Source: Candidatus Moraniibacteriota bacterium
GTDB lineage: Bacteria > Patescibacteriota > Minisyncoccia > Moranbacterales > UBA1568
NCBI GenBank assembly: GCA_016699975.1
Contig: CP064994.1
Span: forward strand, 193,222 to 257,221
DNA: 64,000 bases
Direction: 5' to 3'
Shown here: positions 18,967 through 45,593 of the stretch, in pieces
Layout of the letters: each line of letters opens with the position of its first letter
Numbering within the stretch: position 1 is the stretch's first letter
Made by a program: the position numbers and the translations under genes
The notes under the pieces: generated by a model
What the model was told of the DNA's origin: nothing
Databases searched by the model: none
What the model saw: only the letters and a program-made list of their open reading frames with translations

Positions 18967-20706
18967 TCATTTTCTCTCATCCCGCTCTTTTCGTATTCGC
19001 GATATGAATGATTCGAGAGAGAGGGTCGGGAGCTTTCCCTCGTCTCTCCTTTCGACGGATAGGGTTTTTTCAGCTTCCTCTTTTTTGCCGACCACGATCG
19101 TATAGGGAACTTTTTCGAGTTTTGTTTCGCGTATGCGTTTTCCCAAGCTCTCGTTCGTCTTTATTGAAACGCGGAAGTTTTCGTGTCGAAGTGCCTCGGC
19201 AATCGATGTCGCATAGGATATTTCCCCTTCACCGACTGGGAGAACAGTCACTTGGACCGGTGAAAGCCAGAGGGGGAAAGCGCCCGCATAGTGCTCGATC
19301 AGGGTTGCCATGCATCGCTCAATCGAACCCATAATGGCGCAGTGAATCATAACGATCGGCTCCTTTTCTCCGCGCTCATTGATGCAAGAGAGGCCGAAGC
19401 GGGCGGGTTGGTTGAAGTCGAGCTGAATCGTTGCAACCTGCAGCGTGCGTCCAAGAGAATCTTTGGCAATGAAATCGATTTTTGGTCCGTACATTGCTGC
19501 TTCGCCAAGACCATCGAGAAACGGGATATGGCGCGCATCGAGAATTTTTCGAATGGCATTTTCGGATTTTTCCCACACCTCTTTCGTGCCGAGGTATTTT
19601 TCGAAGGTCTCGGGGTTGTGACGAGAGAAGCGGACTGAGAGATCGAATCCAAAGGTTGAGTAAAATTCACTAATAATGTCCCATATGGAAAACACTTCTG
19701 TTTCGATCTGCGATTCGCGGCAAAAGACGTGCGCGTCATCTTGGGTGATCGCGAGGACGCGTGAAAGACCTGAGAGTTCGCCGGACTGCTCGTCGCGGTA
19801 GACCATGGTTGTTTCGGCATACCGAACTGGCATATCGCGATAGCTTTTTAAAGAAGCCGCGAAAATTTGCGCGTGGTGCGGGCAATTCATCGGCTTCAGG
19901 GCATACTCGTGTTTTTCGCGTGTGCTGACGCGAAACAATTCTTCGGAAAATTTGCTCCAGTGACCGGAAGTTTCGTACAGATCGCATTTGGTTATGTGTG
20001 GGATGGCGACGCGCTCGTAGTTCTTTGCCGCTCTCAGCTCTCGAACGTAGTTGTCGAGAAGATCTCGTATGATCGTTCCTTTGGGTGTAAAAAGCGGAAG
20101 CCCAGGCCCCACCAAATCCGAAAACACGAAGAGGCCAAGTTCCGCACCGAGCTTTCGATGATCGCGTTTTTTCGCTTCTTCTCTTTGCCACTCGTACTTT
20201 TCGAGCTCGGCTTTTGTTCGGAAGGCAACTCCAGTGATGCGGGTGAGTTGTGGTTTCGATTCATCGTTTTTCCAATAGGCTCCCGCGAGTCGGACGAGTT
20301 TGAAGGCATTGGGATCTATCTCTCGGGTGTTGGAAACATGTGGCCCTTCGCAGAGATCTGAGAAGGAGCCTGTAGTATAAATCGATATTGGCTCTTTGCG
20401 AGCCGTGATTTCTTGGATGAGTTCAAGTTTGTATGGCTGGTTCCTGAATCGTTTGCGTGCGTCCTCCGGAGTGATTTCCGTTCGCACGAAATCAATTTCC
20501 TTCTGAAGAAGTGCGCGCATTACTTGTTCGAGTTCGGACAGATCATTTTCGGAACAGGTTGTTCCCGGAGAAAATTCGATGTCATAGAAAAAACCGTTTT
20601 CGGTGGCGGGGCCTGTTCCGAGTTTCGCGCGAGGATCTTTGTGGAGAACGGCGCTTGCGAGAATATGCGCGAGCGAGTGACGAATGGATTCGAGAGGGGC
20701 GTCCAT
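18967..20706 (-). CDS. thrS: Threonyl-tRNA synthetase
   Basis: HSLAHILASAV second-additional-domain motif, class II core motifs, C-terminal anticodon-binding domain. Confidence 0.92.
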   Translation of the reverse strand: MDAPLESIRHSLAHILASAVLHKDPRAKLGTGPATENGFFYDIEFSPGTTCSENDLSELEQVMRALLQKEIDFVRTEITPEDARKRFRNQPYKLELIQEITARKEPISIYTTGSFSDLCEGPHVSNTREIDPNAFKLVRLAGAYWKNDESKPQLTRITGVAFRTKAELEKYEWQREEAKKRDHRKLGAELGLFVFSDLVGPGLPLFTPKGTIIRDLLDNYVRELRAAKNYERVAIPHITKCDLYETSGHWSKFSEELFRVSTREKHEYALKPMNCPHHAQIFAASLKSYRDMPVRYAETTMVYRDEQSGELSGLSRVLAITQDDAHVFCRESQIETEVFSIWDIISEFYSTFGFDLSVRFSRHNPETFEKYLGTKEVWEKSENAIRKILDARHIPFLDGLGEAAMYGPKIDFIAKDSLGRTLQVATIQLDFNQPARFGLSCINERGEKEPIVMIHCAIMGSIERCMATLIEHYAGAFPLWLSPVQVTVLPVGEGEISYATSIAEALRHENFRVSIKTNESLGKRIRETKLEKVPYTIVVGKKEEAEKTLSVERRDEGKLPTLSLESFISRIRKERDERK

Positions 20707-20744
20707 AGAAATATTTCTGAGGGTTATCGCCTGTATAGTTCCAT

Positions 20745-20800
20745 ATTTCGAATCGAAAGAAAAGACCCATCTCTTCGAAAGAAGAAAAAGAGATGGGTCT
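20745..20800 (-). terminator. Rho-independent terminator for the DUF4012 gene
   Basis: agacccatctctt...aagagatgggtct hairpin with a T-run on the minus strand. Confidence 0.7.
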
Positions 20801-20826
20801 TTCCTTCCGTGCTTGTTCGAAGGAAA

Positions 20827-22231
20827 ATGCGCCTGTTAGGACTGGGGCACTTCTGTATCTCGTATTTCGAGAACCAGGTCTTTCCTGAGGTCGGCATGAG
20901 TTGTGAATTCGCCTCTCGACGTTTTGAGGTGAATGGTGACTGGGATAATACCGATTCCTGATTGCTTTTGCACGAGGAGACGATAATTTTCTTCGGTAAT
21001 AGTGGAGGGAAGTTCGTACGAAGGTACGATTCAATTCCGCGTCGTCTTGACTCCCGACACCCCCGGTTTTTTGGCGGCTGTTTTCAATGAAGGTCGATCC
21101 CTTCGGTGTGAAAACGCGTGTATACGTATGGTAGTCGCTTGTTCGCCAGTCGCCTCCCGGGGCTGTATGCTGATAGGTGTAGACCATCGTTGCTTTGGGG
21201 CGCGTCCCCGTCGTAAAGTCGACCGTGTAGTCGAGCTCACGCCGAACAAAGTAATCACTCTTTAATGCGCCCATGTTGGCATCAACAACGAAAATCGAAT
21301 CGTCTGACCACATTTTGGCGACGCTCCCGTCCCAGTGGACGCTCTCGACGAGTGACTGGAGTTTCGGTTCATGAAAAAAGATCATAATATTTTTATCACG
21401 CAGCTCGTTTTGTGCGAGTTCCGCGACTTTTTGGATCGAGTTGAGAGTCGTAAGGCGCGTCAGCATTTCCGTAGCGAGCTTTTTCATAATATTTTTTCGA
21501 CCCTCCTTGACGGTTCCGGGAACGTCGTCCCCGAGATAAGCTTTTTCTACTGTTTCTTCAAGCTTGAGAGCTCCTCCATTCGATGAATAGGTGCCAGGGT
21601 AGCCGGGAATGGTAATAGGACCCGTGAGTTCGAGCAGGTGATCGAATACGGTTGCATTGACAGCAACCACGCCGTCGAATTTTTCGCGACCGCCCCCTAA
21701 TCGGTAGAAGTACTCCGCCTTCGCGGCGTTCGTCGGAAAGTCCGGAGAGAAGTTCGAGTCACGGAGCATCCACCGCTTAATCTGCATGTAACGCGTCAAG
21801 GGCCATGGCGGTGTTACGCGAATATTTGCGTTTTTTATGCGCTGATTAAGGAGGTTCGCATCTTCCACCATGTGCGAAATAACTTCTCCATTTTTGATCT
21901 TTACCACCGAATACTGGCCCAAGAATCCGCCGCCCGGACGAAGTTCGTAGTTGTTTTGCAAGAGAAGAAGAAATGTTCGTGTTCGATTGTCTTTTGCGGA
22001 AAGTTCTTGCACCAATGCATTCACGACTTCAATTTCTTTTTTTGTATCGGGCTCGATCGGAAGAAGTTTGGAAACTTTTTCGATCGCGGCGAGCGTGCTG
22101 GTTGCCACTTCCGTTTTGTGATTTTTTCCATATGAGAAAAGAAAAAATCCCCCGCCGAGGACAAGAATGAGGAGGGCTCCCACGAGGGCATGTTTTCGAT
22201 TGCCAAAGAAAAAAGAAGGGAATGCCTTCAT
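20827..22231 (-). CDS. DUF4012 domain protein, frame changed near 20985-21010
   Basis: LLLQNNYELRPGGGFLGQYSVVKIKNGEV signature; the ORF-track tail to 20582 runs through the terminator and into thrS and reads as R/S-rich junk, whereas the alternative frame gives a protein-like ...TITEENYRLLVQKQSGIGIIPVTIHLK...EVPQS ending at 20827. Confidence 0.75.
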
Positions 22232-22317
22232 AAGAGAATACGAGAATGACGTGAAACGAATTTTCTCTTTGCTATGGTAGCACGGCGCCTCTTTTTGGGG
22301 AATGCTGCGGCTTCTTG

Positions 22318-23394
22318 GGTGAATTCAAACCCCGAAGCCCCTTTTCTGGTATACTCCGGCGTTAACTTCCAAAAACGCTATGAATATGCCAAAAGGAACG
22401 TCCATAACCTTCTTTGAACGAGAGCGAATCAAAGCTTTCTCCGCATGAAGAAAAAGAAAACATGGATCGCGGAGAAACTTGGAAAGATTCTCCGTCATCA
22501 AGCGAGAGATACGAAGAAATTCGAGTCCGCACCTTCCCTATGTTGCCATCCGAGCTGAAGCGTATGCGGAAAGACGAAAGAAAAATACCAACAAAAGAAA
22601 ACTGGAAAATGGCAAAACGAGAAACTGAAAAAGTTTGTCGAAAGCGAACTCCTAAGGGACATTCACCGGAGCAGATAGCCGGCCGGTTGAAAACATCTCC
22701 TCCGAAAAATCTTTCCTCGTGTACGGATACCTCGATAAGTTACGAATCCATCTATGATTACATTTACCGCGGAGAAGGAAGGGTCGGCGGATGGTACAAC
22801 ATCTGCGACGAAAACAGAAGCGGAGACGACCAAAGTTCTCTCGAAAACCGCGAAAAGAGACGATTCCGGATAGAATACCCATTCACGAAAGACCCGCGGT
22901 CATTACCAAGCGTACACCTTGGAGACTGGGAAACCGATTCCGTGATATTCTCAAAACAGAAGTCAGTACTCTCGGTACAGTACGAGCGAAAAATGAAGCT
23001 ATGCCGATTAAAGAAAGTTCCAAACAAAACAGCGGTCGAAAGCGAACGAGCGATACAGGGACATTTCTCTCGGCTTCCGCAGCAATTGAGGAGAAGATTC
23101 GAGAGATAATGGAACGGAGAATGTTTTGCACGGAGAAACGAAACAAAACTTTCTCTTCCTTCCTACTTCTGCGATACCTACAAAAGTTGGCAGAAAGGAG
23201 GTGTGGAAAACTTGAATGGATTGTTACGAGAGTATTTTCCGAAGAAATGCCCGTTTGATAAAATTTCCCAAAAAGAAGTTCGGTCAGTTCAGGACAAACT
23301 CAACAATCGACCGAGGAAAGCGCTTAACTATTTGACGCCGAATGAAGTTTTTGCCAGGGTACTGGAAAAGGGGCATTAAATTCTTGAACTCACC
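22318..23394 (+). mobile_element. IS30-family insertion sequence, copy 1 (1077 bp) with 3-bp TTG target duplication; the transposase is degraded
   Basis: Terminal inverted repeats GGTGAATTCAA / TTGAACTCACC; flanking ttg|...|ttg; transposase motifs HSPEQIAGRL, GDWETDSVIF, NGLLREYFPK...NNRPRKALNYLTPNEVF spread over three frames. Confidence 0.85.
22375..23370 (+). pseudogene. IS30 transposase with multiple frame changes
   Basis: Comparison with copy 2 shows copy-1-specific deletions at about 22433, 22795 and 22925, plus two frame changes shared by both copies at A-runs. Confidence 0.75.
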
Positions 23395-23444
23395 TTGAAG
23401 GATCGAAAAGGGAATGATAGAGTGAGGCAAGAAAAGCCCGAGAA

Positions 23445-23515
23445 GCGAGTGTAGTATAATGGTAGTACATAACCTTCCCAAGGTTGGGGCACGGGTCCGA
23501 TTCCCGTCACTCGCT
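23445..23515 (+). tRNA. tRNA-Gly (anticodon CCC)
   Basis: Acceptor GCGAGTG/CACTCGC, anticodon loop TTCCCAA, T-loop TCCGATT, U73. Confidence 0.85.
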
Positions 23516-23536
23516 CACATTTTTACGTCAATACAT

Positions 23537-24074
23537 TATGAAGGAGGTGTTCTTGGCGGTGCTGGTGTTTGTGGCGCTCGGGAGCGGCACCCTTCTTTTT
23601 CTTGAGTATCGTCGCGAAGCCGAAAAAACTTCCGATGTGCGACCCTCGATTTCTGAAGGAACGCTTTCCTCGATACCTGGCTCCTCGGAATCTGTTCCTC
23701 GTTTGGCAGAAGAAGAAGGTGATTCAGCTTCTGATGAAGAGGGGGATTCTCCTCCTCCACCTCCTCCCGGAAAGCTCGAGGATGCGGAAACACTCCCTGT
23801 TCTTGTGTTGAATGGCGGAGCTGCCGGAGGAAGCGCGGGAAAGATGGTGTCGTATCTCAAAACGAACGGATATGTGAAGGCTCAGGCCGGAAATATAGAT
23901 GGCTCTCACCGTGGTACGGTGGTGTACTTTTCTTCGGAGAGGGAAAGCGAAGCAAAAGCGCTTCAACTCATTCTGCTCAAGCAGTATTCGGGCGTTACTG
24001 CTAAACCAGCCGCCGAATCTTCTCTTCCCGAAATTCGGTCCGCGTCGCTCTCTGTGGTCATGGGCTCGCAATAG
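23537..24074 (+). CDS. LytR_C domain membrane-anchored protein
   Basis: N-terminal TM; PVLVLNGGAAGGSAGKMVSYLKTNGYVKAQAGNIDGSHRGTVVYF resembles LytR_C. Confidence 0.6.
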
Positions 24075-24383
24075 TACTCCCGAAAAGAATGAGAAAACCG
24101 TATCGGAATTTACGATATGCACGAAAAGCGAAAGTCACCTCTTTCGTTTTTTTGTTCCTTCATTCATTACGGCATCTCTCTCTTCCTGTGAAAGGAGAGA
24201 GCTCCATTTTTTCGAAAATCTTTTCGCTTGTTTGACACGGATCTCTTGCTCTTGCATGAAAGGCTATTGATTTTTTATGATCTTCATTGGAAGATTTTCA
24301 TAATTGATTCAGCATTATCTTGACTGAACCCTCTTTTGATCGAACTAGTTGTCTTTTGGAGAGAAAAGGGGTATGGTAAAGCC

Positions 24384-26240
24384 ATGAATACTGAGGTAGA
24401 GGACATAAAAGCACGGCTTTCGGTACGGGAAGTGATTACCGGATATATTCCGCTTACGAAAATGGGCGCGAGTTGGAAGGGACTGTGCCCGTTTCATCAT
24501 GAAAAGACTCCTTCCTTTGTCGTGAACGAAGAACGGGCCGGTTGGCATTGCTTCGGCTGCAATAAAGGAGGCGATGTCTTCACTTTCGTGATGGAAATGG
24601 ACGGACTCTCTTTTCCTGAGGCGCTCGAGCTTCTTGCTGCGCGCGCCGGCGTCGTTTTGGAACGTCGTGCCCCTCCTTTTCACGGCGAGTCTCGAGGCGC
24701 ATCTTCCGAGGCCTCATCCTCCGAAGCGGTTTCGAAGTTACGACTGGTTGCTCTTCTTGACCTCTCGAGTAAGTTTTTCGAGAAACAGCTTTTTGATGGG
24801 GCGGGAAAAAAAGAAGCGCTCCCCTATTTATTGGATCGGGGTCTTTCGGAAGCGTCGATTCGACTTTTTCGGATTGGTTTTGCGCTTCCGGGGTGGCGGA
24901 CACTCTCCGATTTTTTGGTATCGAAGCATTTTTCGCTCGCGGACATGGAGCAAGCGGGCATGGTGGTGAGAAAATCCCGGGAAGATTTTTCGGGGAATGA
25001 ATCTCGATCCCAAGAAGGGTGGTATGATCGTTTTCGAGCGCGCATTACTTTTCCGATCTTCGATGCAAGTGGACGTATACTTGGTTTTTCCGCACGGGTT
25101 CTTCCTGGTGCCGACGATGCACAGGCGAAGTATGTGAACACGCCCGAAACGGTGTTGTATCACAAATCTCGTGCGCTCTACGGATTTTTCCAGGCGAAAC
25201 GAGCCATTCGCGAAGCGGGTCACGCGATTCTCGTCGAGGGAAATACGGATGTGATCGCGATGTATCAGGCGGGATTTCGAAATACGGTGGCGGTCTCGGG
25301 TACCGCGCTCACCGAGGAGCACCTTCGCTTCCTTCGGCGCTCGACCGATACGCTTAAACTTTTTTTTGATATGGATAGCGCCGGGCAAATTGCTGCGCGA
25401 AAGAGTGCGGAGATGGCGCTTCTTCTTGGATTTTCGGTGTCGATCGTTGCTCTTTCTTCTGGAAAAGACGCTGCGGAAATTGCACGAACGGATCCTCGGT
25501 CGCTCGAGGCGGCGCTTCTTGGGGCGCTTCCCGCGCCGGAATATTTTTTGCATCGCACGCTCCTTGAACACTCGACTCGAACGGCGGAAGGAAAGCGACG
25601 AGCCGCCGAAAGTATGGCAGGTATAGTGCGCGCTCTTACTCACGCTATCGAACGCGCCCACTGGGTCAAACATGTTGCTGAACGAATCGGGATATCAGAA
25701 GCGTCATTCGACTCCGTCGTGCGATCGGTACGCTCAGATCTTTCTTTTGCTCAATCTCCGGAACCAATGAATTCTCTCGAACGTGAGGAGCGATTCGAAG
25801 AGCCGTCACGAAAGATTCTTCTTGATATCACAAGCGTCCTTCTCGCTGCTCCTCATCTCCTCCCTTTTTCGGTTGAAGACTTCGAAGACCGGGCACTACG
25901 GGCAGTGTCCGAGCTGCCACTCCTCTCTTTCCTTTCTGGAATTTCTGCGGCAGAATTTTCTTTTCGAACGATTCCGGAAGACATGAAATCCGAAGCCGCG
26001 CGGTATGCGTTTTTCGGAGAAAAACTTCTAGGAGTTTCTGTCTCCGAGGGCGAGGCATCCGCCGCTCCCGAAAAAGCGCGCTCACTTCTTGCGGAATTGG
26101 TGGCGCGCTTTCGAAGTGAACTCCGCAAAGAGGAAATGAGGGCTCTCGAACGCGCGATGCGCATCGCTCGGGAAGCGGGGAATTTTTCCGAGGAACGCGA
26201 ACTCGCCGAGCGCCTCATGGCAGTGGGAAGAGAAGGGTAA
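24384..26240 (+). CDS. dnaG: DNA primase
   Basis: CHC2 zinc finger CPFHHEKTPSF...WHCFGC; TOPRIM AILVEGNTDVIAMYQAG...VAVSGTALT. Confidence 0.92.
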   Translation: MNTEVEDIKARLSVREVITGYIPLTKMGASWKGLCPFHHEKTPSFVVNEERAGWHCFGCNKGGDVFTFVMEMDGLSFPEALELLAARAGVVLERRAPPFHGESRGASSEASSSEAVSKLRLVALLDLSSKFFEKQLFDGAGKKEALPYLLDRGLSEASIRLFRIGFALPGWRTLSDFLVSKHFSLADMEQAGMVVRKSREDFSGNESRSQEGWYDRFRARITFPIFDASGRILGFSARVLPGADDAQAKYVNTPETVLYHKSRALYGFFQAKRAIREAGHAILVEGNTDVIAMYQAGFRNTVAVSGTALTEEHLRFLRRSTDTLKLFFDMDSAGQIAARKSAEMALLLGFSVSIVALSSGKDAAEIARTDPRSLEAALLGALPAPEYFLHRTLLEHSTRTAEGKRRAAESMAGIVRALTHAIERAHWVKHVAERIGISEASFDSVVRSVRSDLSFAQSPEPMNSLEREERFEEPSRKILLDITSVLLAAPHLLPFSVEDFEDRALRAVSELPLLSFLSGISAAEFSFRTIPEDMKSEAARYAFFGEKLLGVSVSEGEASAAPEKARSLLAELVARFRSELRKEEMRALERAMRIAREAGNFSEERELAERLMAVGREG

Positions 26241-26354
26241 TATTTCCTTTCCCCGGCTTTAAACGGCGTCATTTTTTGACGAGGGGGGGTCTCTCGTGTA
26301 CCATGGACCCATATTCTCGAAGAGAAAAGTTCACTTCTTCTTTCTTCTCTTTTT

Positions 26355-27815
26355 ATGAGACGCTCCCGAACCGCTCCCCGCGCTTCAAAGGGAAAGAAAC
26401 CGCGGAAGCCCGCTCGCTCCACTTCTTCCACCAAGAAAAAAAAGATGCCAAAAAAAGCTTTTTCTCTTCACCGTTCTTCCGAAAAGAAACGAACAACTCC
26501 TTCCGGAAAAGGTCGCAGCGCTCACGCCAAAAAAGCGATACGAAAACCATCCCGATCGGCAGCGAAAACGAAACGCCCTTCGAAATCTTCGTCACGCCCT
26601 CCTTCTCGAGAGAAGCAGTCCCGAGACACTCACAAGAAGCTCCCTGCTCCCGAGTCTCCCCTCGAGGTGAAGCCCGAAGAGAAAGAGATACGAAGGGTGA
26701 ATGCGTTCGAAGAACTTCTCTTTCGTGGTCGACAGCGAGGCTTTGTTACGGAAGACGAAATTATTCATATTTTGCCGGACATCGAGCATGATCTCGAGAA
26801 TCTTGAAAATCTCTATGAGAAATTTGAGACGAGCGGCGTGAAAGTGGTCGACTCGAGCGATATGCTGAAGCTTGAGACCGACAAGATTGGAGAGGAATTT
26901 TCTGGAAAGAAAAAGAACGCCAAGAAGAAAGAAAAGGAAACATCAATTCTTGGTGGTCCTGAAAAAACCGAGGAAGAAGCGGGTGATTCCGCTGACCTGG
27001 TGCAAATGTATCTGCGGGAAATTGGGCGCGTCCCTCTTATTTCGGGACAAGAGGAAGTACGACTGGCAAAGCAGATCGAAGCAGGAGATGCCTCTTCCAA
27101 GCAGCGCCTTACCGAAGCGAACCTGAGACTTGTGGTCTCGATCGCCAAAAAATATGTGGGACGGTCTCACAATCTTTCGCTGCTCGATTTGGTGCAGGAA
27201 GGAAATATCGGACTCTTTCGCGCCGTTGAAAAATTTGATTTTCGGAAGGGATTCAAGTTCTCGACTTACGCAACGTGGTGGATTCGCCAGGCAATTACGC
27301 GCGCACTTGCCGATCAATCGCGCACGATTCGCATTCCTGTTCACATGGTCGAAACGATTAATAAATATAGCCAAGTGACACGTCGTCTCGTTCAAGAGCT
27401 TGGCAGAGAGCCGCTTCCCGAGGAAATTGCCGTTGAGATGGGAGTCGAAGTTGAAAAGATTCGTCACATCCAAAAGATTTCCCAAGAAACAGTTTCTCTT
27501 GAGACGAGTGTGGGTTCCGATGACGACGAAAGCGTGCTTGGCGATTTTATTGAGGATACGGAGACGGTCATGCCGCATCAGGCGGCTGCGCGAAAATTGC
27601 TTTCCTCGCATATTGCAGAAGTGCTGGATGAGCTTTCGCCACGTGAGCAAAAGATTCTGAAGATCCGCTTCGGTCTCGAAGACGGAGTGGTTCATACGCT
27701 CGAAGAGGTGGGGCAGGAATTTGGCGTGACTCGCGAGCGTATTCGCCAGATCGAAGCGAAGGCGCTCGAGAAAATTCGCGAGCACGATATCGTAAAGAAA
27801 CTGAAAGATTATTGA
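26355..27815 (+). CDS. rpoD: RNA polymerase sigma-70 factor with about 110 aa of Lys/Arg/Ser-rich N-terminal extension; the start codon is uncertain
   Basis: Region 1.2 [11 protein letters not shown]; region 2 [33 protein letters not shown]...[10 protein letters not shown]; region 4 [20 protein letters not shown]. Confidence 0.9.
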
Positions 27816-27830
27816 AAGAGGCACTTAGGA

Positions 27831-28349
27831 GTGTCGAGGGAATCCGCTTTGCCTATGCCGCACATCCACACCAAACCGGGACAGATTGATTTCATCGCGG
27901 AAGTTTTTTGTGTCTACCAGGATAGGGTTTTGTTTCGTTTTCATGAGAAAGCGCGCCTCTGGATCGCGCCTGGCGGACACATTGAGCTCCATGAAACGCC
28001 GGAAGAAGCAGCTATCCGCGAAGTAAAAGAAGAAACTGGTTTGGACGTCACTCTGTTTTCTGGAAAGAAAGAAACAAGCGAGCACGAACCTGTTGGGACG
28101 AACTTGCTTGGAGATTGCCGAGAGCTTCTGGTGCCTGCTTTTCTGAATGTTCACGCAATAAATGCTGAGCATCGGCATATAAGCCTGGTCTACTTTGGCA
28201 CGGTCATAACCGACCACATCATTCAACCCGAGAATCATGAGAAGGCAGAGTGTCGCTGGCTCACTCGAGAACAAGTTCAGAGTGACACTGCCATTACGCC
28301 TCTCATGAAAAAGTACGCTCTCGTTGCACTTGAGACCTTGTCTCATTGA
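27831..28349 (+). CDS. NUDIX hydrolase
   Basis: Canonical Nudix box GGHIELHETPEEAAIREVKEETGLDV. Confidence 0.85.
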   Translation: MSRESALPMPHIHTKPGQIDFIAEVFCVYQDRVLFRFHEKARLWIAPGGHIELHETPEEAAIREVKEETGLDVTLFSGKKETSEHEPVGTNLLGDCRELLVPAFLNVHAINAEHRHISLVYFGTVITDHIIQPENHEKAECRWLTREQVQSDTAITPLMKKYALVALETLSH

Positions 28350-28402
28350 GAGAGTGCCTAGTTCCTTTGTAATGTGCCCTTTAAAGGGCGAGGAGAAGAG
28401 AA

Positions 28403-28651
28403 ATGTGTCTTGCGGTCCCAGTCTTGATCGTAGAGCTTCTGGAAAACGAAGAAGCAATAGTTGACATGGGAGGTGTTCGGAAAAAGATTTCTACCGCACT
28501 TCTGGATGGAGTAGCGGTGGGAGAGTACGTAATCGTCCATGTCGGCTACGCACTCAGCCGAATTGATCCCGAAGAAGCTAAAAAAACGCTTCGGCTCATG
28601 CAGAAAGGAGCAGTGAACGACTCTCTTTCCGAGTTCGAATCAGCGGCGTGA
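28403..28651 (+). CDS. hypC: HypC/HybG-family [NiFe]-hydrogenase maturation chaperone (orphan)
   Basis: N-terminal MCLAVP signature with Cys2, ~80 aa, beta-barrel-like pattern. Confidence 0.7.
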   Translation: MCLAVPVLIVELLENEEAIVDMGGVRKKISTALLDGVAVGEYVIVHVGYALSRIDPEEAKKTLRLMQKGAVNDSLSEFESAA

Positions 28652-28929
28652 ACGTCCCGCCTTCCCGAATATCGCGATATTCGGGAAGGCTTTTTGATAA
28701 AAGTTGCGGAATCCTTTCGAACCTTGTTGCCTTTCCAATTGTCCAAGTGTTTTCCGAAGAGAGGAATCACGGAAGAGTCAGAGGGAGCTTTCCTAGATTT
28801 CTTCCCACCTGGTTGAGAGTCCCGTTTCTCTTTTTGGATGTTTGGTTCGATGCTTGGTTCTTTCGCTTGCCAATGTGAATCTTCTTTCCTATACTGGCCA
28901 TGCATCTTTTGCAACGTGAGAAAATGTAT

Positions 28930-29001
28930 TCCGGCGTAGCTCAGCGGTAGAGCGAGGGACTGTTAATCCCCAGGTCGCAGGTTCGAATCCTGCCGCCGGA
29001 G
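28930..29001 (+). tRNA. tRNA-Asn (anticodon GTT)
   Basis: Acceptor TCCGGCG/CGCCGGA, D-arm GCTC/GAGC, anticodon loop CTGTTAA, T-arm GCAGGTTCGAATCCTGC, G73. Confidence 0.85.
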
Positions 29002-29115
29002 CATCATAGGACTCTGAGCATATTCTGCCCAAAGTTTTGTTTTATCAGAGCCAAAACCGAGAGGTTCTAGGTGAAACCGTCTTTTTATTTTATATAAGCC
29101 ACTAATAATAAAAAA

Positions 29116-29640
29116 ATGGAAAATGCGACAACAGATGTTAGCCAAAATGTTTCAAGTCAAAGCGTAGCAATCCCAGAAAAAAAGCACGATATGGCTTGGG
29201 TAATTTCTCAAATTATTCTTAGGGAGTTCATAGTTGGATTTCCGATAATTATGGTGTTGATGATAATTGCAGGAATTATAGTTGTTAGCAGTGGCGTAAA
29301 CATTGAAGCACTATTGCAAAGAGCACAAGCAGAACCAGAATTTGCAAAACAATTAGCTATGCTAAATCAGCTTGTTAGTGCAGTATTATTTCCAATTTCC
29401 TATATCGGAACACGCTGGGGATGTAAATATGTGACAAAAGCACTTATATTGAGGAAAAGGATTTTGGAAAAATAGGATATTGGATCGGACTTATTCCAAT
29501 TGCTTTTGGATTGATAAGTGGAAGTGTTATGTTAGGGGCAGCTTTCTTTGGTATTTTTGTTACACCAAAATTAGTAAAGAAGTGGCTTGCAAAGTTTAGT
29601 GCTGAAAATAATTCATTAGACCTGTTGCCTTTTAAGCAAC
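29116..29640 (+). CDS. Hypothetical multi-TM membrane protein; frame changed near 29465 and its 3' end runs into the IS terminal repeat
   Basis: ORF 29116..29475, then an alternative frame IGYWIGLIPIAFGLISGSVMLGAAFFGIFVTPK... that continues into the IS left inverted repeat. Confidence 0.45.
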
Positions 29641-30652
29641 ACTGTTAAAATTGAGTTATCCTAAAAACAAACATAAAACCATGATAAACATCCAGCGAGT
29701 ATTGAAGAATCCAAGGGCAATGTCAGCATTAACAGGTGCAACAGCAACGGAATTCAAGCAGCTTCTTCCTGATTTTATCAAAACGTGGGAAAGTTCAAAA
29801 CGTTATCAACACAGACGAGATGCTGGAGTCAGAAAAATCGGAGCAGGCAGAAAGGGTTTTCTAAAATCCATGGAAACAAAACTGTTCTACGTCCTTTTTT
29901 ACTACAAATGTTATCCAACCTATGACCTTCTCAGTATCATTTATGATTGCAATCGCTCCAATGCTTGCAGACGACAATTTGAGTTAGGAAATCTTTTGGA
30001 AAAAACCTTGGGCAGAAAGCGAGTTCTTCCAGAAAGGAAAATGAGAAAACTCGAAGAGTTTTTCAAAGCTTTTCCGGAGGCGCGAGAAGTCTTCATTGAT
30101 GGCACGGAACGTCCCATTCAGCGTTCAAAAGACAAGGAAAAACAGGAAGAAAACTACTCCGGCAAGAAAAAGAAACATACCCGAAAAAACATTGTTATTA
30201 CTGACAAGAAAAAACGAATTGGTTTTTTGAGTAAGACTGAAGGAGGAAAAAATCATGATTTTCCGATGCTCAAAAGATACGCTTCTCCTGACAATATGCC
30301 AACCAAAATCAAGAAACATTTGGATTTGGGATTCAAGGGGTTTCAAAATCAGTTTCCTGGTCACAAAGTATCAATGCCCAAGAGAAAACCAAGGACAAAA
30401 GAACTCACTGAATTTTCCAAAGAACAAAACAAGAAAAAATCTGCAATCAGAGTCTTGGTTGAAAATGCTCTTGCCGGTGTTAAAAGACTCAGAATTGTTA
30501 CGGATGTATTTCGCAACAAGAAAAAGAATTTCGACGATCAAGCAATGTTCATTTCCTGCGGACTCTGGAATTACCATTTATCAGTAAAATGGTAATTCCA
30601 GAATCTTCATGGAGATTCTTGTTAATTTAAGTTGCTATTAAGCAACAGGTCT
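29618..30652 (+). mobile_element. IS5/Harbinger-like insertion sequence (DDE_Tnp_4 transposase) with 24-bp imperfect terminal inverted repeats and a 3-bp ATT direct repeat
   Basis: Left end agacctgttgccttttaagcaac vs right end gttgctattaagcaacaggtct; flanked by att on both sides. Confidence 0.75.
29651..30595 (+). CDS. DDE_Tnp_4-family transposase
   Basis: N-terminal HTH_Tnp_4-like LTGATATEFKQLL...GAGRKGFL; catalytic YSGKKKKHTRKNIVITDKKKRIGFLSKTEGGKNHDFPMLK. Confidence 0.8.
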   Translation: MSYPKNKHKTMINIQRVLKNPRAMSALTGATATEFKQLLPDFIKTWESSKRYQHRRDAGVRKIGAGRKGFLKSMETKLFYVLFYYKCYPTYDLLSIIYDCNRSNACRRQFELGNLLEKTLGRKRVLPERKMRKLEEFFKAFPEAREVFIDGTERPIQRSKDKEKQEENYSGKKKKHTRKNIVITDKKKRIGFLSKTEGGKNHDFPMLKRYASPDNMPTKIKKHLDLGFKGFQNQFPGHKVSMPKRKPRTKELTEFSKEQNKKKSAIRVLVENALAGVKRLRIVTDVFRNKKKNFDDQAMFISCGLWNYHLSVKW

Positions 30653-30711
30653 ATTAGATAAAATCCCACTTAGGGATTTTATTGTGTCCAAAAATTTACT
30701 AAAATATAAAT

Positions 30712-31172
30712 ATGTGGAATAAAGTAACAAAATTTATACCAGAAAATTTTAGAATTGTTGCCACATTGGTTACATTTTCAATTATAACCTTCATAAATGA
30801 GGGGTCTGGGGGTAGTTTTTCAATGAATAAGTTTACAGATAGTGGATTTGCGGGTTTTTCTTTGGAAAATGCTCTCAAAGGAACATTGATGACATACCTC
30901 TATCTTTTTGAAGGGTTATCTATTCTTGGAGTGCTTATTGTTATTATGTGGCGCGTGATCGCTGGATATTGGATTTGGAATATGAAGGATCACACAAAAA
31001 TGTCAGAAAACAAAGCGAAGAAGAGTTTACAGAAAACAATACTAAGGCATTCAATTACATTATAAAACTCGCATTGATTGCGGGGTTGGTAACTGGCGTA
31101 TTTGTAATTATAATCGGATTTGCACTCAAGTTCTATATTCATTATAAAACTGGCAGTTGGTGGTTAGAATAA
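30712..31172 (+). CDS. Hypothetical small membrane protein, frame changed near 30950
   Basis: ORFs 30712..31065 and 30948..31172 overlap; both halves are hydrophobic. Confidence 0.4.
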
Positions 31173-31410
31173 ATTATTGAAATGCAAAAGTGTTCAAAAA
31201 AAGTTCTAAATCTGCCCTGAATTTGAGCGATTTCAGTTCTGAATATAGCAAATTGGCGGAGCCAAACTCGGATTAGGAGCAGCGAAATCTGCTTCTTTTC
31301 CTTTTACAGGGTCTTGAGCTGCATGTTCGAGTGTACCTATTTTTTTCAATTTCAATGAACATGAAAGCGAGACCGTCTTTGATGATGGAGAACGGTTCTT
31401 TCGCGTTTGT

Positions 31411-31475
31411 CCACTAGGCGGAGCAGCCAAAACAAGGCTTGAGCGGGCCTTGTTTTTGTATATCCTCTGTTGGAG
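31411..31475 (+). repeat. Hairpin repeat family, copy A (truncated, abutting IS30 copy 2)
   Basis: ccactaggcGGAGCAGccAAAACAAGGCttgagcggGCCTTGTTTTtgtatatcctctgttggag; about 90% identical to copy C. Confidence 0.8.
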
Positions 31476-32561
31476 GGTGAGTTCAAGAATTTAATGCCCC
31501 TTTTCCAGTACCCTGGCAAAAACTTCATTCGGCGTCAAATAGTTAAGCGCTTTCCTCGGTCGATTGTTGAGTTTGTCCTGAACTGACCGAACTTCTTTTT
31601 GGGAAATTTTATCAAACGGGCATTTCTTCGGAAAATACTCTCGTAACAATCCATTCAAGTTTTCCACACCTCCTTTCTGCCAACTTTTGTAGGTATCGCA
31701 GAAGTAGGAAGGAAGAGAAAGTTTTGTTTCGTTTCTCCGTGCAAAACATTCTCCGTTCCATTATCTCTCGTAATACTTCTCCTCAATTGCTGCGGAAGCC
31801 GAGAGAAATGTCCCTGTATCGCTCGTTCGCTTTCGACCGCTGTTTTGTTTGGAACTTTCTTTAATCGGCATAGCTTCATTTTTCGCTCGTACTGTACCGA
31901 GAGTACTGACTTCTGTTTTGAGAATATCACGGAATCGGTTTCCCAGTCTCCAAAGTGTGTACGCTTGGTAATGACCGCGGGTCTTTCGTGAATGGGTATT
32001 CTATCCGGAATCGTCTCTTTTCGCGGTTTTCGAGAGAACTTTGGTCGTCTCCGCTTCTGTTTTCGTCGCAGATGTTTGTACCATCCGCCGACCCTTCCTT
32101 CTCCGCGGTAAATGTAATCATAGATGGATTCGTAACTTATCGAGGTATCCGTACACGAGGAAAGATTTTTCGGAGGAGATGTTTTCAACCGGCCGGCTAT
32201 CTGCTCCGGTGAATGTCCCTTCAGGAGTTCGCTTTCGACAAACTTTTTCAGTTTCTCGTTTTGCCATTTTCCAGTTTTCTTTTGTTGGTATTTTTCTTTC
32301 GTCTTTCCGCATACGCTTCAGCTCGGATGGCAACATAGGGAAGGTGCGGACTCGAATTTCTTCGTATCTCTCGCTTGATGACGGAGTAATCTCTTCCAAG
32401 TTTCTCCGCGATCCATGTTTTCTTTTTCTTCATGCGGAGAAAGCTTTCGATTCGCTCTCGTTCAAAGAAGGTTATGGACGTTCCTTTTGGCATATTCATA
32501 GCGTTTTTGGAAGTTAACGCCGGAGTATACCAGAAAAGGGGCTTCGGGGTTTGAATTCACC
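31476..32561 (-). mobile_element. IS30-family insertion sequence, copy 2 (inverted, 1086 bp); no target duplication; transposase degraded
   Basis: Near-identical to copy 1 with the same terminal repeats; the fragments (ORFs 32248..32499, 32118..32399, 31655..32188) carry HTH MPKGTSITFFERERIESF...REIRRN and the core ...GDWETDSVIF...SITRDNGTEN; flanks gag / gtg do not match. Confidence 0.85.
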
Positions 32562-33614
32562 GTGATTTATTTACCATCATTTAAAAAGCCTGTAACAATC
32601 AAGCCAGTAGCTCTAAATGAACTTGGAGAACAGCTAAGTATTTCTATTCCAGATGTGAGGGTGCCAAAGATTGAATTAGAAGAAAAAGAGCAAGAAAAGA
32701 TTGTAAACGATACGATTAAGTTTGTGTTTGGTACCTCACCTAAAGATGCTCTATCTAAAAGTGAATTTGAGAAGAGGTGTTTGATTTTTGCAAGGCATAT
32801 CGGAGAAAAATGGGAAGAGATACTGACAAGTTCTCATCATCCTATCGAGGAAAAACTTCCTGAAGTTATAGCAAAGATGGAAGCGGAGAGTTTTCGACTA
32901 CTGGTTCTATCTGGAGTTTTAGCGATCTATGGTACCGAGGAGCAAATAAAAGTGTTTGTAGAAACTCTTTCAGAGGTTTTGAAGTTAGCAAAAGGTAAAT
33001 CAGGGATTGTTGCAATTATTGCGGTTCCTGAGGTTATTGTTCTTTTGACGATATATATATTTACCTTGCTCGCATTAGCAACTCGAGACTTTAGTCGGTT
33101 AAAGGTATTTACCAATACCAGAGTCTATGGTTGGGTATACGATGGTGAGCCACCAAAAATCCTAGCCCTGAATCACGTTCACTACACCAGCGCATTAACC
33201 GGACATGCCGATAAAGTTGCGGACTTTGTTAGATCTAGACTTGAATCTATGAAGTGGTTAAAGTCTCTACACCCAAGACTGGAGAATATTCAAGATGTCC
33301 AAATACAAGCCAGTTTTCTTCTTAGTATGCTTATGCGCCACAATGATATTAGGACTTGGCCTGATTTTGGAAGATGGTACGCTCAAAGAATCACCTCTAT
33401 CGTAGAAAGGATAAAATATGATGATCAATATGTTAAACAAATAGCCAGTCTTTTTGATGTTCAATCCAAGGATTTGAGGTTGAAATTTTCGGAGTATCTT
33501 ACCGACTTTCGAAAGGCTGGGATGGCTCAGTATCACTGGGAATCCATCAGTCAGAAAGCACTCTTTACACCCGAGGAACTTACAAAGATGAAAGAGGAGA
33601 ACTTAGGAGATTAA
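32562..33614 (+). CDS. Hypothetical protein (350 aa, AT-rich), probably 5'-truncated by IS30 copy 2
   Basis: The ORF opens exactly at the IS boundary; first ATG is about 107 codons in; internal TM segment; no recognised domain. Confidence 0.45.
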   Translation: MIYLPSFKKPVTIKPVALNELGEQLSISIPDVRVPKIELEEKEQEKIVNDTIKFVFGTSPKDALSKSEFEKRCLIFARHIGEKWEEILTSSHHPIEEKLPEVIAKMEAESFRLLVLSGVLAIYGTEEQIKVFVETLSEVLKLAKGKSGIVAIIAVPEVIVLLTIYIFTLLALATRDFSRLKVFTNTRVYGWVYDGEPPKILALNHVHYTSALTGHADKVADFVRSRLESMKWLKSLHPRLENIQDVQIQASFLLSMLMRHNDIRTWPDFGRWYAQRITSIVERIKYDDQYVKQIASLFDVQSKDLRLKFSEYLTDFRKAGMAQYHWESISQKALFTPEELTKMKEENLGD

Positions 33615-33909
33615 GACATAATTTATGTGGTCTTTGGATTTTACTTTTGGAAAAACGAGCTAAAATTGAAACAAAAAATCGGTTAGGTAGGCGTCTAAAC
33701 TAGTCTAATTTCATGGACAACGCTTTCGTTTTTGGAGATGGAGGGGTAATTACTGGAGAAGATTGTTGGGCGAGTGAGAGGAAATAGTGAGGGATTTTAA
33801 CCGCGAGGATTTTGGGGCGACCCTTGCATAATATCAAGCTCCATGTTATCGTCCGCTGTCTGGTTCCTTGACAATTCATGTTCAACAATTCACCTATCGG
33901 AGGTGCAAA

Positions 33910-34741
33910 GTGGCTACTGTAGAAAAGAGTATTCGTCCCATGATATTCAGTGCTCCGGCTATTGGGGAGCGTGAAACGGTTTTTCCCTTGGCTCGAGAGC
34001 TGGTTCGTATTCAAGTTCCGGAAGCACTGATCAAAGATATCCTCGAAGCCTGCGATGGTCAGAGAACTTTGGATATGGTGCTGGAATTGCTTGAATCTAA
34101 GTGGGATCGCGATACATTAGAGAGCTTCTTGCGGCACTTGCACGAGAAAGGGGTGCTGTATGATAGCTCAAACTTGAGCGGTTTCGTTTGGCCGTTCGTT
34201 TCAAATCCGAGTCACTTCTCAAAAGCGGTGACTGATCTTCAGGTAGCTGAGATGGTTGAGCGAGCGTGCTTGAGGCAACGGAATCTTCCATCAAATATGT
34301 TTTTCACGGTGAAGGAGTATTATCCTTTCCAACGATTGGTTTCCAATCGGAAATCGGAACGATCCTTTTCAGGGAAAGTGATTAGCATGGAGCGTGTTGT
34401 TCAAATGCTGTGGGCGGGATATGGAGTTATTGCCGAATCTCAATCAGGAGTGGGCTTTGACCGTCATACCGTTCCGTCGGCGGGAGCATTGTATCCGTGG
34501 CGTGGTGATTGTGAATGGGTCGTTTAGTGTAGGGGAAGAGAAATATGGCAACAGGTCGCTCCTCTATGTTCCGCTTGAAGCGGGGCATGTCGCGCAGAAC
34601 ATTCTTTTGGAAGCGACAGAGTGCGGTGTTGCGACGGTGGAGATTGGCGGATTTCTCGAAGAGCCGATGCGAGACGCATTACGATTGCCGACGGAATTCG
34701 TTCCGTTGACCACCGTGGTGTTTGGCGATTCTGCCGGTGGT
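33910..34741 (+). CDS. SagB-type dehydrogenase (McbC-like nitroreductase-fold, TOMM 'B' protein), frame changed near 34508-34515
   Basis: SERSFSGKVIS...TVPSAGALYP hallmark motif, followed in the next frame by VVIVNGSFSVGEEKYGNRSLLYVPLEAGHVAQNILLEA...GGFLEEP; GGAGG RBS then GTG at 33910. Confidence 0.8.
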
Positions 34742-35970
34742 GGGGATCATGGACATCACCTGCCATGCGGATTCGAAGTTTGGTGGGCATATCCAAAAGC
34801 AAATGGATACGTGTTGCCGTTCAATCTCGTGTTTGCTCGATTGGCAAAAGCTTCCGGTGGAAGCGAAGAGTGGTCATGCGGGCGTTCTTCCGATCCTTTC
34901 GTGGCGTATGAAAAAGCGACTGCGGAAGTGCGGGAGTGGGCGGCATGCAGTCTTCCGCATAACCTTGTGAAGTCGAATATCGGATCGCTTGCGAGTGCGG
35001 TAGCGCCGGACAGCATAGTGGCGTTTCATCCCGATCAGTACGCTTCGCCGAGTTTTCCGTTCTTTCCCTTGAACAAGAAGGGGTCTACGAATGGAAGGAA
35101 GCCACAGACGTGGTAACGTGTGAAATACATTTCATTCTGGCTGACTGTATCTACTTCCCCTACTATCCGGAGTATCCGCGCTGTGCAAGTGCGAATTCTT
35201 CCGGAGCGGCTGCGTATCCCACAAGGATTGGCGCAGTTCGGCGCGGGGTGTTGGAGTTGATCGAGCGAGATGCCTTCATGATCGTGTGGCTCAACCGTTT
35301 GGTGATGCCAACGATCGCTGGTGGTAGTTTTCCGGATGATGTTCGGTGTCGTATTCGCAACTTGGAAGAAGCGGGTTTTGAAGTGATCATCAAGGATGCG
35401 ACACTTGATTTGGCTCCGGTTGTGTTGGTATTCGCGCAGAGCGAAGACTTGCATTACACAACGTGCTCCGCTTGCTGTTCTTTCAATGTTGACAGGGCGC
35501 TGAATCATGCTTTACTGGAGGTCGAAGCGGCGGTGTATTGTCGTTTGGCATTCGGCTCTTCAGAGCCGATGCTTCCCGAAGATGTGCGGATGACGCAGGA
35601 TCACGGGAAGCTGTACGAGCAAGAAGCTTTTTTCCGACAAGCGGATTTTCTGAAAGAGTCTCGGCTCTTGAAAGACTTGAGTGAAGTCGGCGAGGGCGCT
35701 TGCTTTCACTGGGAAATGCTGTTGGTGCGTATCGCGGAACAAGGAAGGAACGTTCTGGTGGTCGATCTTGAAAATCCGCATGTGGACGGTATTCAGTCAA
35801 ATCTGTTCATAGTGAAAACTTTTGTGACAGGATTGGTGCCGATAAGCTTCGGGTACAGAGAAGAGCCGTGCGGGATGCAAAGAATCTACGAAGTCCCTGT
35901 GACTTTTGGATTCCGTTCCGACCCGATTCGTTACGACGAACTCAACAGGTTCCCGCATCTTTACACATAG
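34742..35970 (+). CDS. YcaO cyclodehydratase domain protein (TOMM 'D' protein), frame changed near 35045-35075; contiguous with the SagB reading frame with no intervening stop
   Basis: N-part SCGRSSDPFVAYEKATAEVREWAACS; core SSGAAAYPTRIGAVRRGVLELIERDAFMIVWLNRL (YcaO ExxERD motif). Confidence 0.8.
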
Positions 35971-44455: not shown

Positions 44456-44548
44456 AGGTTCGAACTTCCTCCAGTCCGCGGAGCAGGCAAAACGAGGCTG
44501 AACAGCGCCTTGTTTTTTGTTACCCCTTGTCGGAGTTCGAACCTCTTA
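44456..44548 (+). repeat. Hairpin repeat family, copy B
   Basis: GGTTCGAACttcctccagtccgcGGAGCAGgcAAAACgAGGCtgaacagcGCCTTGTTTTttgttaccccttgtcggaGTTCGAACctc. Confidence 0.8.
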
Positions 44549-45391: not shown

Positions 45392-45516
45392 GAGGTTCGA
45401 ACACTTTCCATTTATCCCTCCACCCCTCTATAGGACAAGGTTCGAACTTCATCCAACAGGTGGAGCAGCTAAAACAAGGCTTGAGCAGGCCTTGTTTTTG
45501 TATATCCTCTATTGGA
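45392..45516 (+). repeat. Hairpin repeat family, copy C (two GGTTCGAAC motifs plus the hairpin)
   Basis: aGGTTCGAACac...cctccacccctctataggacaaGGTTCGAACttcatccaacaggtGGAGCAGctAAAACAAGGCttgagcagGCCTTGTTTTtgtatatcctctattggag. Confidence 0.8.
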
Positions 45517-45593
45517 GTTTGGATTTGGTATAGACAAAACTTTTAAATATGCGATTATTATAAATCGTTCTTTTCCATCCGTACCTATATTTA

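Follow-up and report, generated by a model that had tools for sequence, protein, structure and literature searches.

Single-base frameshifts in two inverted IS30-family copies of a Moranbacterales genome: probable consensus errors in a multicopy repeat

When two copies of an insertion sequence (IS) are broken at the same places, they may descend from an element that was already defective before it duplicated, or they may record errors of the assembly in which they are read. This question is raised by a 64,000-nucleotide stretch of DNA, hereafter the window, from CP064994, a circular metagenome-assembled genome (MAG) of Moranbacterales (Patescibacteria) that was obtained from a Danish wastewater plant and measures 1,048,819 bp (about 1.05 Mb). 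A preliminary description had reported two inverted IS30-family copies in the window, and both lie exactly where it placed them:

22318-23394, plus strand: IS30-family copy 1, 1077 nt as assembled (true element 1088 nt), forming an inverted repeat with copy 2
31476-32561, minus strand: IS30-family copy 2, 1086 nt as assembled

The title of that description called the shared frame changes ancestral, and its text named systematic error as an alternative. The evidence favours the alternative, and the consensus of the element is intact. With a probability of roughly 0.88, judged from assembled sequence rather than raw reads, the frameshifts are residual single-base consensus errors in the IS repeats of a low-coverage Nanopore assembly.

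The element, its relatives and the reference sequence

The reference for the element is a 1088-nt sequence that recurs unchanged in nine short-read contigs, assembled independently from sewage and wastewater metagenomes. This consensus contains one uninterrupted transposase ORF of 336 aa (nt 63-1073). The repaired transposase matches NF033563 transpos_IS30, an NCBIfam equivalog, with E = 3e-73 and 246.8 bits (cutoff 80), and covers the profile end to end (positions 1-267 of 267); PF13936 HTH_38 is found at its N-terminus (residues 5-48; 30.1 bits, cutoff 27). Its DDE triad comprises D189, D246 and E280, separated by 56 and 33 residues (D-56-D-33-E). Triads of the IS30 family are spaced by about 55 residues from D to D and by 33 from D to E. 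The triad motifs DWETD, TRDNG and GGVEN align to HWEGD, TWDRG and GTNEN of IS30. The terminal inverted repeats, GGTGAaTTCAA and GGTGAgTTCAA (GGTGAATTCAA / GGTGAGTTCAA), are identical at 10 of 11 positions, and an extra GCCCCTTTTC block lies inside both element ends, 1 nt out of register. The length of 1088 bp falls inside the family range of about 1.0-1.7 kb, and the 3-bp target-site duplication (TSD) of copy 1 agrees with the 2-3 bp of the family.

By its sequence, the element classifies as a full-length, ordinary IS30-family insertion sequence. It resembles the E. coli prototype IS30 in the full profile match, HTH_38, DDE triad, single ORF, inverted repeats and 3-bp duplication, and differs from it in its host, a candidate-phyla-radiation (CPR) bacterium of the Moranbacterales. 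Compared with the IS30 family it is compact, at the low end of the size range, and has short inverted repeats that do not match perfectly. Other Patescibacteria MAGs carry IS30-family elements (L001-L012; P0001, P0003-P0021) with 55-93% aa identity to it, which are likewise single ORFs of 330-340 aa; these are distinct species-level elements, and none has the two shared frame changes. Some occur in several copies, such as L007-L012, which are six copies of one sequence, identical throughout, within a single Moraniibacteriota contig of 1.3 Mb. A single ORF is present in every relative examined (L002, L004, L005, L007-L012, and P0001-P0021 at 336 aa), and in relatives with 55-65% aa identity one ORF runs over both shared lesion sites. 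CP064994 holds at least seven copies of the 1088-bp element, the two in the window being inverted, and the element is active in the Moranbacterales population. Neither an abutted IRR-IRL junction, as in a circular or (IS)2 intermediate, nor an inverted-repeat-targeted insertion of IS into IS was seen in the short-read contig flanks, and a plasmid database search with the element gave no match.

CP064994 was built with CANU, Racon and medaka v0.6.5, with a last Racon round on minimap2-mapped Illumina reads; the authors also circularised the contig and checked it (PMC8012365). It corresponds there to MAG Hirt_18-Q3-R61-65_MAXAC.378, from the Hirtshals sample. Its coverage is given as ilmcov 5.38 and npcov 10.93 (Supplementary Data 3, PMC8012365; Singleton et al., 2021). 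The errors left over in long-read assemblies are mostly of homopolymer length and survive short-read polishing in repeats, according to the Polypolish paper (PMC8812927). Short-read assemblies of multicopy repeats collapse to the majority path, under which a lesion in one of at least seven copies could be hidden. Left and right flanks across the IS are joined arbitrarily in short-read contigs, as in L019 and L025, which have the same right flank and different left ones; such contigs are therefore uninformative about the TSD rule of the element.

Single-base lesions and their origin

The two copies were aligned base by base, a check suggested in the preliminary description, and the only differences between them are nine deletions of one base each, every one of them in copy 1; there are 0 substitutions and 0 insertions. 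These deletions come after positions 22430, 22484, 22489, 22653, 22799, 22917, 22920, 23096 and 23099. Against the 1088-nt consensus, copy 1 has eleven 1-nt deletions and copy 2 has two (A5 to A4 in both cases), again with 0 substitutions in either copy. Two lesions are common to both:

22602-22612, plus strand: lesion 1 in copy 1, CTGGAAAATGG; consensus A5
32264-32274, minus strand: lesion 1 in copy 2, A5 to A4 against the consensus
23142-23152, plus strand: lesion 2 in copy 1, AACAAAACTTT; consensus A5
31718-31728, minus strand: lesion 2 in copy 2, A5 to A4 against the consensus

The need for the same pair of frame corrections in the two copies had been recognised from the outset, but the first lesion had been misplaced. 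Rather than at the stop after KLENGKTRN, it lies about 17 nt upstream, in the context CTGGAAAA(A)TGG, where the bracketed A is lost (full-length allele CTGGAAAAATGG); the intact protein and its relatives read KLEKWQNEKL at this site. The context of lesion 2 is CAAAA(A)CTT, also with loss of the bracketed A (full-length allele AACAAAAACTTT), and the intact protein sequence there is HGETKQKLSLPSYFCD. Further deletion variants, GAATCAAAGC and CCTAAGGG, have the full-length counterparts GAATCGAAAGC and CCTGAAGGG, respectively. The first ORF of copy 2 (32499-32248) is identical to the annotated protein QQS21111.1 (P0128, 83 aa). As for copy-specific indels, the copies do differ as assembled, but all nine indels belong to copy 1 and look like the same kind of noise. 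What had been read as a +1 in cctgaaggg of copy 2 turns out to be the loss of one base (-1) from copy 1, the two bases lost near 22925 represent two separate -1 events instead of a single -2, and the pairs 22484/22489 and 23096/23099 had been overlooked. The concentration of all nine private lesions in copy 1 has a binomial p of 0.004, and 7/11 copy 1 deletions fall outside homopolymers.

Lesions in the sister copies of CP064994 were deduced by threading annotated proteins onto the 1088-nt consensus, not read from sister-copy DNA. One annotated copy is intact (QQS21378.1 = P0121). The annotated fragment P0002 is broken near ISref positions 138, 154, 224 and 969, P0123 near 270, P0125 near 318 and P0126 near 395, the last by a +1. 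No amino-acid substitution is present in the sister-copy fragments, several of which keep the frame at the "shared" sites; 7/9 A5 runs of the element are hit in at least one copy. Broken transposase products are confined to the NCBI record of CP064994, and the intact product is found on at least 12 contigs. Over 3592 nt of unique DNA, comparison with related strains gave 33 substitutions and 0 indels; a second comparison, of 1865 nt, gave 65 and 0. Set against this unique DNA (98 substitutions, 0 indels), the IS copies differ both in the kind of difference (Fisher, p = 3e-17) and in indel rate (p = 8e-8).

Systematic error is favoured as the source of the shared lesions because the population consensus is intact, because the sister copies keep the frame there and lose it at different A5 runs, and because the lesions are without exception 1-nt indels, with 0 substitutions, in a source of 10.9x Nanopore and 5.4x Illumina coverage. 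In the mechanism proposed, short-read polishing would have corrected unique sequence, the multicopy repeat lying beyond its reach. The two shared lesions would then be recurrent A5 homopolymer under-calls instead of inherited mutations, and the true element would carry one intact 336-aa DDE transposase gene in both window copies. The pattern is like that of repeat errors in hybrid-polished long-read assemblies (PMC8812927): 1-nt indels in a multicopy repeat, homopolymer-enriched and differing between copies, with clean unique flanks. It is unlike pure homopolymer error in the seven copy 1 errors outside homopolymers, which are more like a thin (~11x) early-chemistry Nanopore consensus. Conjecturally, the excess of lesions in copy 1 might reflect thinner read support where an insertion is polymorphic, or multi-mapping reads that were placed unevenly.

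Were the lesions real, a copy with both A-run frameshifts would have duplicated, mobilised in trans, and copy 1 would then have lost nine more bases. The presence of the same two lesions in copies 1 and 2 speaks for such a history, for which the intact CP064994 copy could supply transposase in trans and whose minority alleles could hide under the collapsed short-read consensus; neighbouring genes (caspase-family, DUF4012) are disrupted too. We nevertheless regard it as quite unlikely. The 13 lesion instances include 0 substitutions, whereas lineage divergence runs at 98 substitutions to 0 indels, and the sister copies, which keep the frame at the shared sites but are interrupted at different A5 runs, form a pattern of noise, not of phylogeny. 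Copy 1 is young, with a perfect TSD and polymorphism among 99.5%-identical strains, but on this view it would have decayed the furthest. Broken products appear in no other assembly, and the coverage of this one is only 10.9x Nanopore and 5.4x Illumina. Other disrupted genes nearby would also fit a process in this CPR bacterium that makes genuine 1-nt deletions and targets repeated DNA preferentially, such as error-prone repair, gene conversion among IS copies or a RIP-like, substitution-free transposon defence; we hold this to be very improbable.

Recoding of transposase is known from the IS1, IS3 and IS630 families, and both shifts seen here are -1 and lie in A-rich sequence. The idea that -1 ribosomal frameshifting or transcriptional slippage at the A-runs sets the transposase level is scarcely credible all the same, for the consensus and the annotated CP064994 copy carry A5 at each of the two sites within one unbroken ORF, the runs span no more than 4-5 nt, and the data require neither a conserved slippery heptamer nor a downstream structure. 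Programmed frameshifting of the IS1/IS3/IS630 type, with two overlapping ORFs, was rejected on the grounds that the consensus, the sister copy and all relatives are single-ORF. An alternative code in which UGA is sense was rejected by inspection, as other types of stop occur further along the frame after UGA.

Insertion sites and the bracketed segment

The copies were said to bracket tRNA-Gly, dnaG, rpoD, hypC and tRNA-Asn. All of these were located, and a NUDIX gene as well:

20582-22231, minus strand: DUF4012 gene (Pfam), adjoining copy 1; the empty-site allele P0144 reads across the insertion point
22315-22317: TTG target duplication, left flank of copy 1
23395-23397: TTG target duplication, right flank of copy 1
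23445-23516, plus strand: tRNA-Gly(CCC), first gene within the bracket
24336-26240, plus strand: dnaG (primase; Pfam Zn_ribbon_DnaG, DNAG_N, Toprim, DnaB_bind)
26355-27815, plus strand: rpoD (sigma-70; Pfam Sigma70 r1_1 to r4), protein identical in the related strain L017
27831-28349, plus strand: NUDIX hydrolase gene
28403-28651, plus strand: hypC/hupF-family gene (PF01455, 89.8 bits)
28930-29002, plus strand: tRNA-Asn(GTT); strain collinearity stops just past it
29003-31475: strain-variable low-GC (36-41%) segment, ending in a 66-nt terminator repeat
29651-30595: DDE_Tnp_4 transposase gene, inside the strain-variable segment 29003-31475
32562-33614, plus strand: caspase-family (Peptidase_C14) gene, 3' 350 codons of about 592, cut by copy 2

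Copy 1 is located 86 nt upstream of the DUF4012 gene; its distance to tRNA-Gly is 50 nt. The TTG duplication reported at this copy is genuine, since an empty-site allele, P0144, exists: its residues 1-26 correspond to 23470-23393 and its residues 26-456 to 22315-21023, and in-silico removal of copy 1 together with one TTG gives the P0144 N-terminus residue for residue. Copy 1 is a recent simple insertion that is polymorphic between strains of 99.5% identity. A search of metagenome contigs for the empty site with an exact 20-mer returned four matches (L031-L034), which were dismissed as chance, their flanks being unrelated to the window. Separately, the DUF4012 gene, which is unique sequence, has a 53-nt deletion, and several genes (nitroreductase, YcaO, holA) are apparently split; both observations could reflect real gene decay in this strain instead of assembly noise.

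Copy 2 had been described as flanked by gag and gtg, without a target duplication; GAG and GTG are indeed its plus-strand flanks, and the duplication is missing because the two flanks are of different origin. On one side, a 66-nt terminator-bearing repeat (31410-31475) abuts the element. On the other, the alignment of the intact caspase allele begins at 32562 exactly, and its 5' 874 nt are nowhere in the window; a reciprocal junction, at which the end of the caspase 5' half, ...TCAAAAGGGGTG (...GGGGTG), would meet an IS end, is not present in the window. When the D1 repeat was used to rebuild the copy 2 target, the likeness among D1 copies stopped at the junction. Copy 2 unites two unrelated flanks, the terminator-bearing repeat and the middle of a caspase-family gene. 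An adjacent deletion mediated by the IS may have produced its junctions, or else recombination with a third copy. Low Nanopore coverage, together with the mis-joined flanks of short-read contigs of the element (L019 vs L025), could suggest an assembly chimera instead, in which wrong flanks were joined over the repeat and biological rearrangement played no part. We consider this unlikely: Nanopore reads span a 1.09-kb repeat easily, and the contig was circularised and author-checked.

Inversion of the intervening segment by the inverted copies, raised in the preliminary description, holds as a general possibility only. Nothing indicates that this segment was inverted, given the matched TSD of copy 1, its left junction, which is ancestral by comparison with the empty-site P0144, and a GC skew that is positive throughout and does not flip at either IS boundary. 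The dnaG-rpoD segment is probably in its ancestral orientation. A search for att-like direct repeats around the segment after tRNA-Asn found none.

Implications for insertion sequences in CPR genomes

In hybrid-polished, low-coverage long-read MAGs, 1-nt indels in multicopy insertion sequences can pass for pseudogenisation or for "shared ancestral" lesions. Read-level checks are therefore needed before such assemblies are used to draw conclusions about IS decay, pseudogene counts or genome reduction in CPR bacteria. The locus also offers a modest positive result: an intact IS30-family element maintained as identical copies, at least seven in 1.05 Mb, with a strain-polymorphic insertion and a disrupted caspase-family gene.

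The element and the genes it brackets

Two inverted copies of one insertion sequence lie exactly where the preliminary description placed them, with no others within the 64 kb:

22318-23394, + strand: IS30-family copy 1, 1077 nt as assembled
31476-32561, - strand: IS30-family copy 2, 1086 nt as assembled

The element starts with GGTGAATTCAA, and its other end is the reverse complement of GGTGAGTTCAA. Translated after two frame repairs, copy 2 encodes a 336-aa transposase. This protein fits the NCBIfam IS30 equivalog model along the full length of the profile (246.8 bits, cutoff 80) and has an N-terminal HTH_38 domain and a DDE triad of D189, D246 and E280 (spacings 56 and 33). Profile match, HTH, DDE spacing, single ORF, inverted repeats, 3-bp target site duplication (TSD) and size all agree with the IS30 family, and the GenBank product annotation already reads "IS30 family transposase". 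Relatives are confined to Patescibacteria MAGs (Paceibacterota and Moraniibacteriota). The element is an undescribed yet ordinary IS30-family member from a CPR host. On JAXHLG010000002.1, a 1.3-Mb Moraniibacteriota contig polished with Polypolish, a related element of the IS30 family (55% amino acid identity) has no fewer than six copies, all identical and intact (matches L007-L012). L001, L013 and L014 match in several frames, indicating copies that are decayed or mis-assembled. Moranbacterales may commonly host expansions of IS30-family elements.

All of the genes first reported between the copies were found there, namely tRNA-Gly(CCC), dnaG, rpoD, hypC and tRNA-Asn(GTT), together with genes for a LytR_C protein and a NUDIX hydrolase. 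The hypC/hupF-family gene (28403-28651; PF01455, 89.8 bits) adjoins the NUDIX and rpoD genes, an arrangement kept in the related-strain contig L017; no other hydrogenase-maturation genes were found beside it among the ORFs scanned.

Junctions of the two copies

The flanks read earlier, TTG on both sides of copy 1 and GAG and GTG (+ strand) around copy 2, were recovered. For copy 1, the comparison comes from P0144, a DUF4012 protein from an independently made Logan assembly that shares 99.5% identity with the window protein. Its residues 1-26 map beyond the element (23470-23393) and residues 26-456 before it (22315-21023). In-silico removal of the element and one TTG gives a translation identical to the P0144 N-terminus; P0144 is therefore an empty-site allele, and the proposed TTG duplication is genuine. 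Copy 1 is thus a simple, recent insertion that varies between near-identical strains, and the bracketed segment has an ancestral left junction (DUF4012 beside tRNA-Gly). The likely true start of the DUF4012 protein (MKAFPSFF...) lies 53 codons downstream of the start in the Logan call, whose residues 1-53 region (23393-23470, - strand) runs antisense through tRNA-Gly. The called start is probably over-extended, and the call was used solely for the sequence that it gives across the empty site. The DUF4012 gene carries a lesion of its own:

20582-22231, - strand: DUF4012 gene, lesion near 21022

It is about 53 nt shorter than P0144, lacking residues 457-474, and residues 475-535 resume in another frame (21021-20839). 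A TCGTAC direct repeat borders the gap on either side, and the read-through shares 125 nt with the ThrRS ORF. The loss may be genuine in this strain or may stem from the assembly.

Copy 2 lies between two unrelated sequences:

32562-33614, + strand: caspase-family (Peptidase_C14) remnant, ORF opening exactly at the copy 2 boundary
31410-31475, 44470-44535, 45452-45517: 66-nt repeat family, 74-91% identity

The remnant corresponds to the C-terminal 350 residues, the non-catalytic part only, of a ~592-aa caspase-family protein. Intact alleles in three other assemblies (L028-L030) align from exactly 32562 onward (96.5-98.5% identity, 0 gaps), and nothing in the window corresponds to their 5' 874 nt. 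On the other side, the repeat, which also occurs at 44470 and 45452 and holds a terminator-like hairpin (AAAACAAGGC...GCCTTGTTTTT), stops exactly at the copy 2 boundary. Since the flanks are of different origin, copy 2 is not a simple insertion. Adjacent deletion and inter-copy recombination are both known outcomes of IS30-family activity, and we infer that copy 2 arose by an adjacent deletion that the IS mediated or by recombination involving a third copy. The intact 592-aa alleles come from other wastewater assemblies; the remnant has a weak NCBIfam match to the EACC1-associated caspase type, below cutoff, and an Rfam search with the 66-nt repeat gave no match.

Inversion with copy 1 was also considered as the origin of copy 2 and rejected, as it would have split the copy 1 TSD. 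Recombination between two inverted repeats of 1.09 kb is possible in principle, as had been suggested, but TSD, left junction, strain collinearity and GC skew gave no evidence that the bracketed segment has inverted. The copy 1 TSD is matched, and the left junction ancestral. From dnaG to tRNA-Asn, the bracketed interior and a related strain are collinear, and GC skew is positive across 14-37 kb with no flip at either copy.

Collinearity between strains stops directly after tRNA-Asn (28930-29002). The low-GC segment that follows was not listed in the preliminary description:

29003-31475: low-GC segment (36-41% GC)
29651-30595: DDE_Tnp_4/HTH_Tnp_4 transposase gene, unrelated to the IS30 copies

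This transposase has only a weak IS5-type match, below cutoff. At the same place L017 carries a 527-aa serine recombinase (3544-5127; Resolvase/Recombinase domains). The differing cargo suggests that tRNA-Asn is an integration hotspot; a search for att-like direct repeats around the segment gave none.

Origin of the frame changes

Both copies had been described as sharing two ancestral A-run frame changes. Relatives at 55-65% identity (L002, L004, L005, L007-L012) have a single ORF over both sites, and 10 short-read contigs, assembled independently from metagenomes of sewage and wastewater, encode exactly the intact 336-aa protein. Nine contigs, those with both element ends, carry one identical 1088-nt element. 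Neither copy has a single substitution against this consensus. Copy 2 lacks one nucleotide at each of two places, where A5 has become A4 (positions 296 and 842); copy 1 has eleven 1-nt deletions, these two and nine of its own (114, 169, 175, 341, 488, 607, 611, 788, 792). Aligned base by base, the copies differ by these nine alone. Within the same genome, the annotated proteins include an intact sister copy (QQS21378.1) and fragments that match it exactly in sequence and are broken at other sites: P0123 in the A5 run at 267, P0125 at 315, P0126 at 393 (+1), and P0002 at 135, 964 and two more sites. Several stay in frame at both "shared" sites. P0128 (QQS21111.1, 83 aa) is exactly the first ORF of copy 2, an identity that links the window to this genome. 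Seven of the element's nine A5 runs are miscalled in at least one copy, and the intact transposase occurs on at least 12 contigs, its broken products in no other assembly. Relatives, independent assemblies and sister copies, three independent lines, show that the frame changes are not a property of the element; the "shared" lesions are very probably recurrent A5 under-calls.

CP064994 is the MAG Hirt_18-Q3-R61-65_MAXAC.378 (1,048,819 bp; Patescibacteria, Paceibacteria_A, Moranbacterales, family UBA1568), with 5.38x Illumina and 10.93x Nanopore coverage (Singleton et al., 2021, PMC8012365, Supplementary Data 3). Nanopore reads were assembled with CANU and polished with Racon, then two rounds of medaka v0.6.5, and lastly one more Racon round with minimap2-mapped Illumina reads (PMC8012365). 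Residual long-read errors are mainly in homopolymer length, and repeats keep them because short-read alignment is unreliable there (PMC8812927).

Compared with two related strains that were assembled independently, unique window DNA has 33 substitutions over 3592 nt (L017) and 65 over 1865 nt (L028), with 0 indels in either case, whereas the two IS copies together show 0 substitutions and 13 one-base deletions over 2163 nt (Fisher's exact test, p = 3e-17 for kind of difference, p = 8e-8 for indel rate). This contrast is as expected of residual errors in repeats. Natural decay, even in a mismatch-repair-deficient lineage, would not yield indels without substitutions, nor would it account for the seven non-homopolymer deletions of copy 1. 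Assembly error is also the best explanation for the copy-specific changes, all nine of which fall in copy 1 (binomial p = 0.004) and not, as reported, in both copies. We conjecture that this excess may reflect thinner read support where an insertion is polymorphic, or polishing reads that map to several places and were distributed unevenly.

Several unique genes also appear split or truncated (33868-35970; 62381-62956; 17658-18218; 6710-7216). A Nitroreductase domain is divided over a pair of overlapping ORFs that differ in frame (profile positions 2-40 and 94-166), YcaO begins at profile position 96 and DUF475 at 125, holA stops early, and an NAD_binding_1 ORF is without its usual N-terminal domain. 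Residual errors, at an Illumina coverage of 5x, would fit this pattern, as would real decay of the genes.

The transposase gene is very probably intact in both copies of the real genome (probability close to 0.9). Apparent IS pseudogenisation in low-coverage hybrid MAGs thus needs read-level confirmation.
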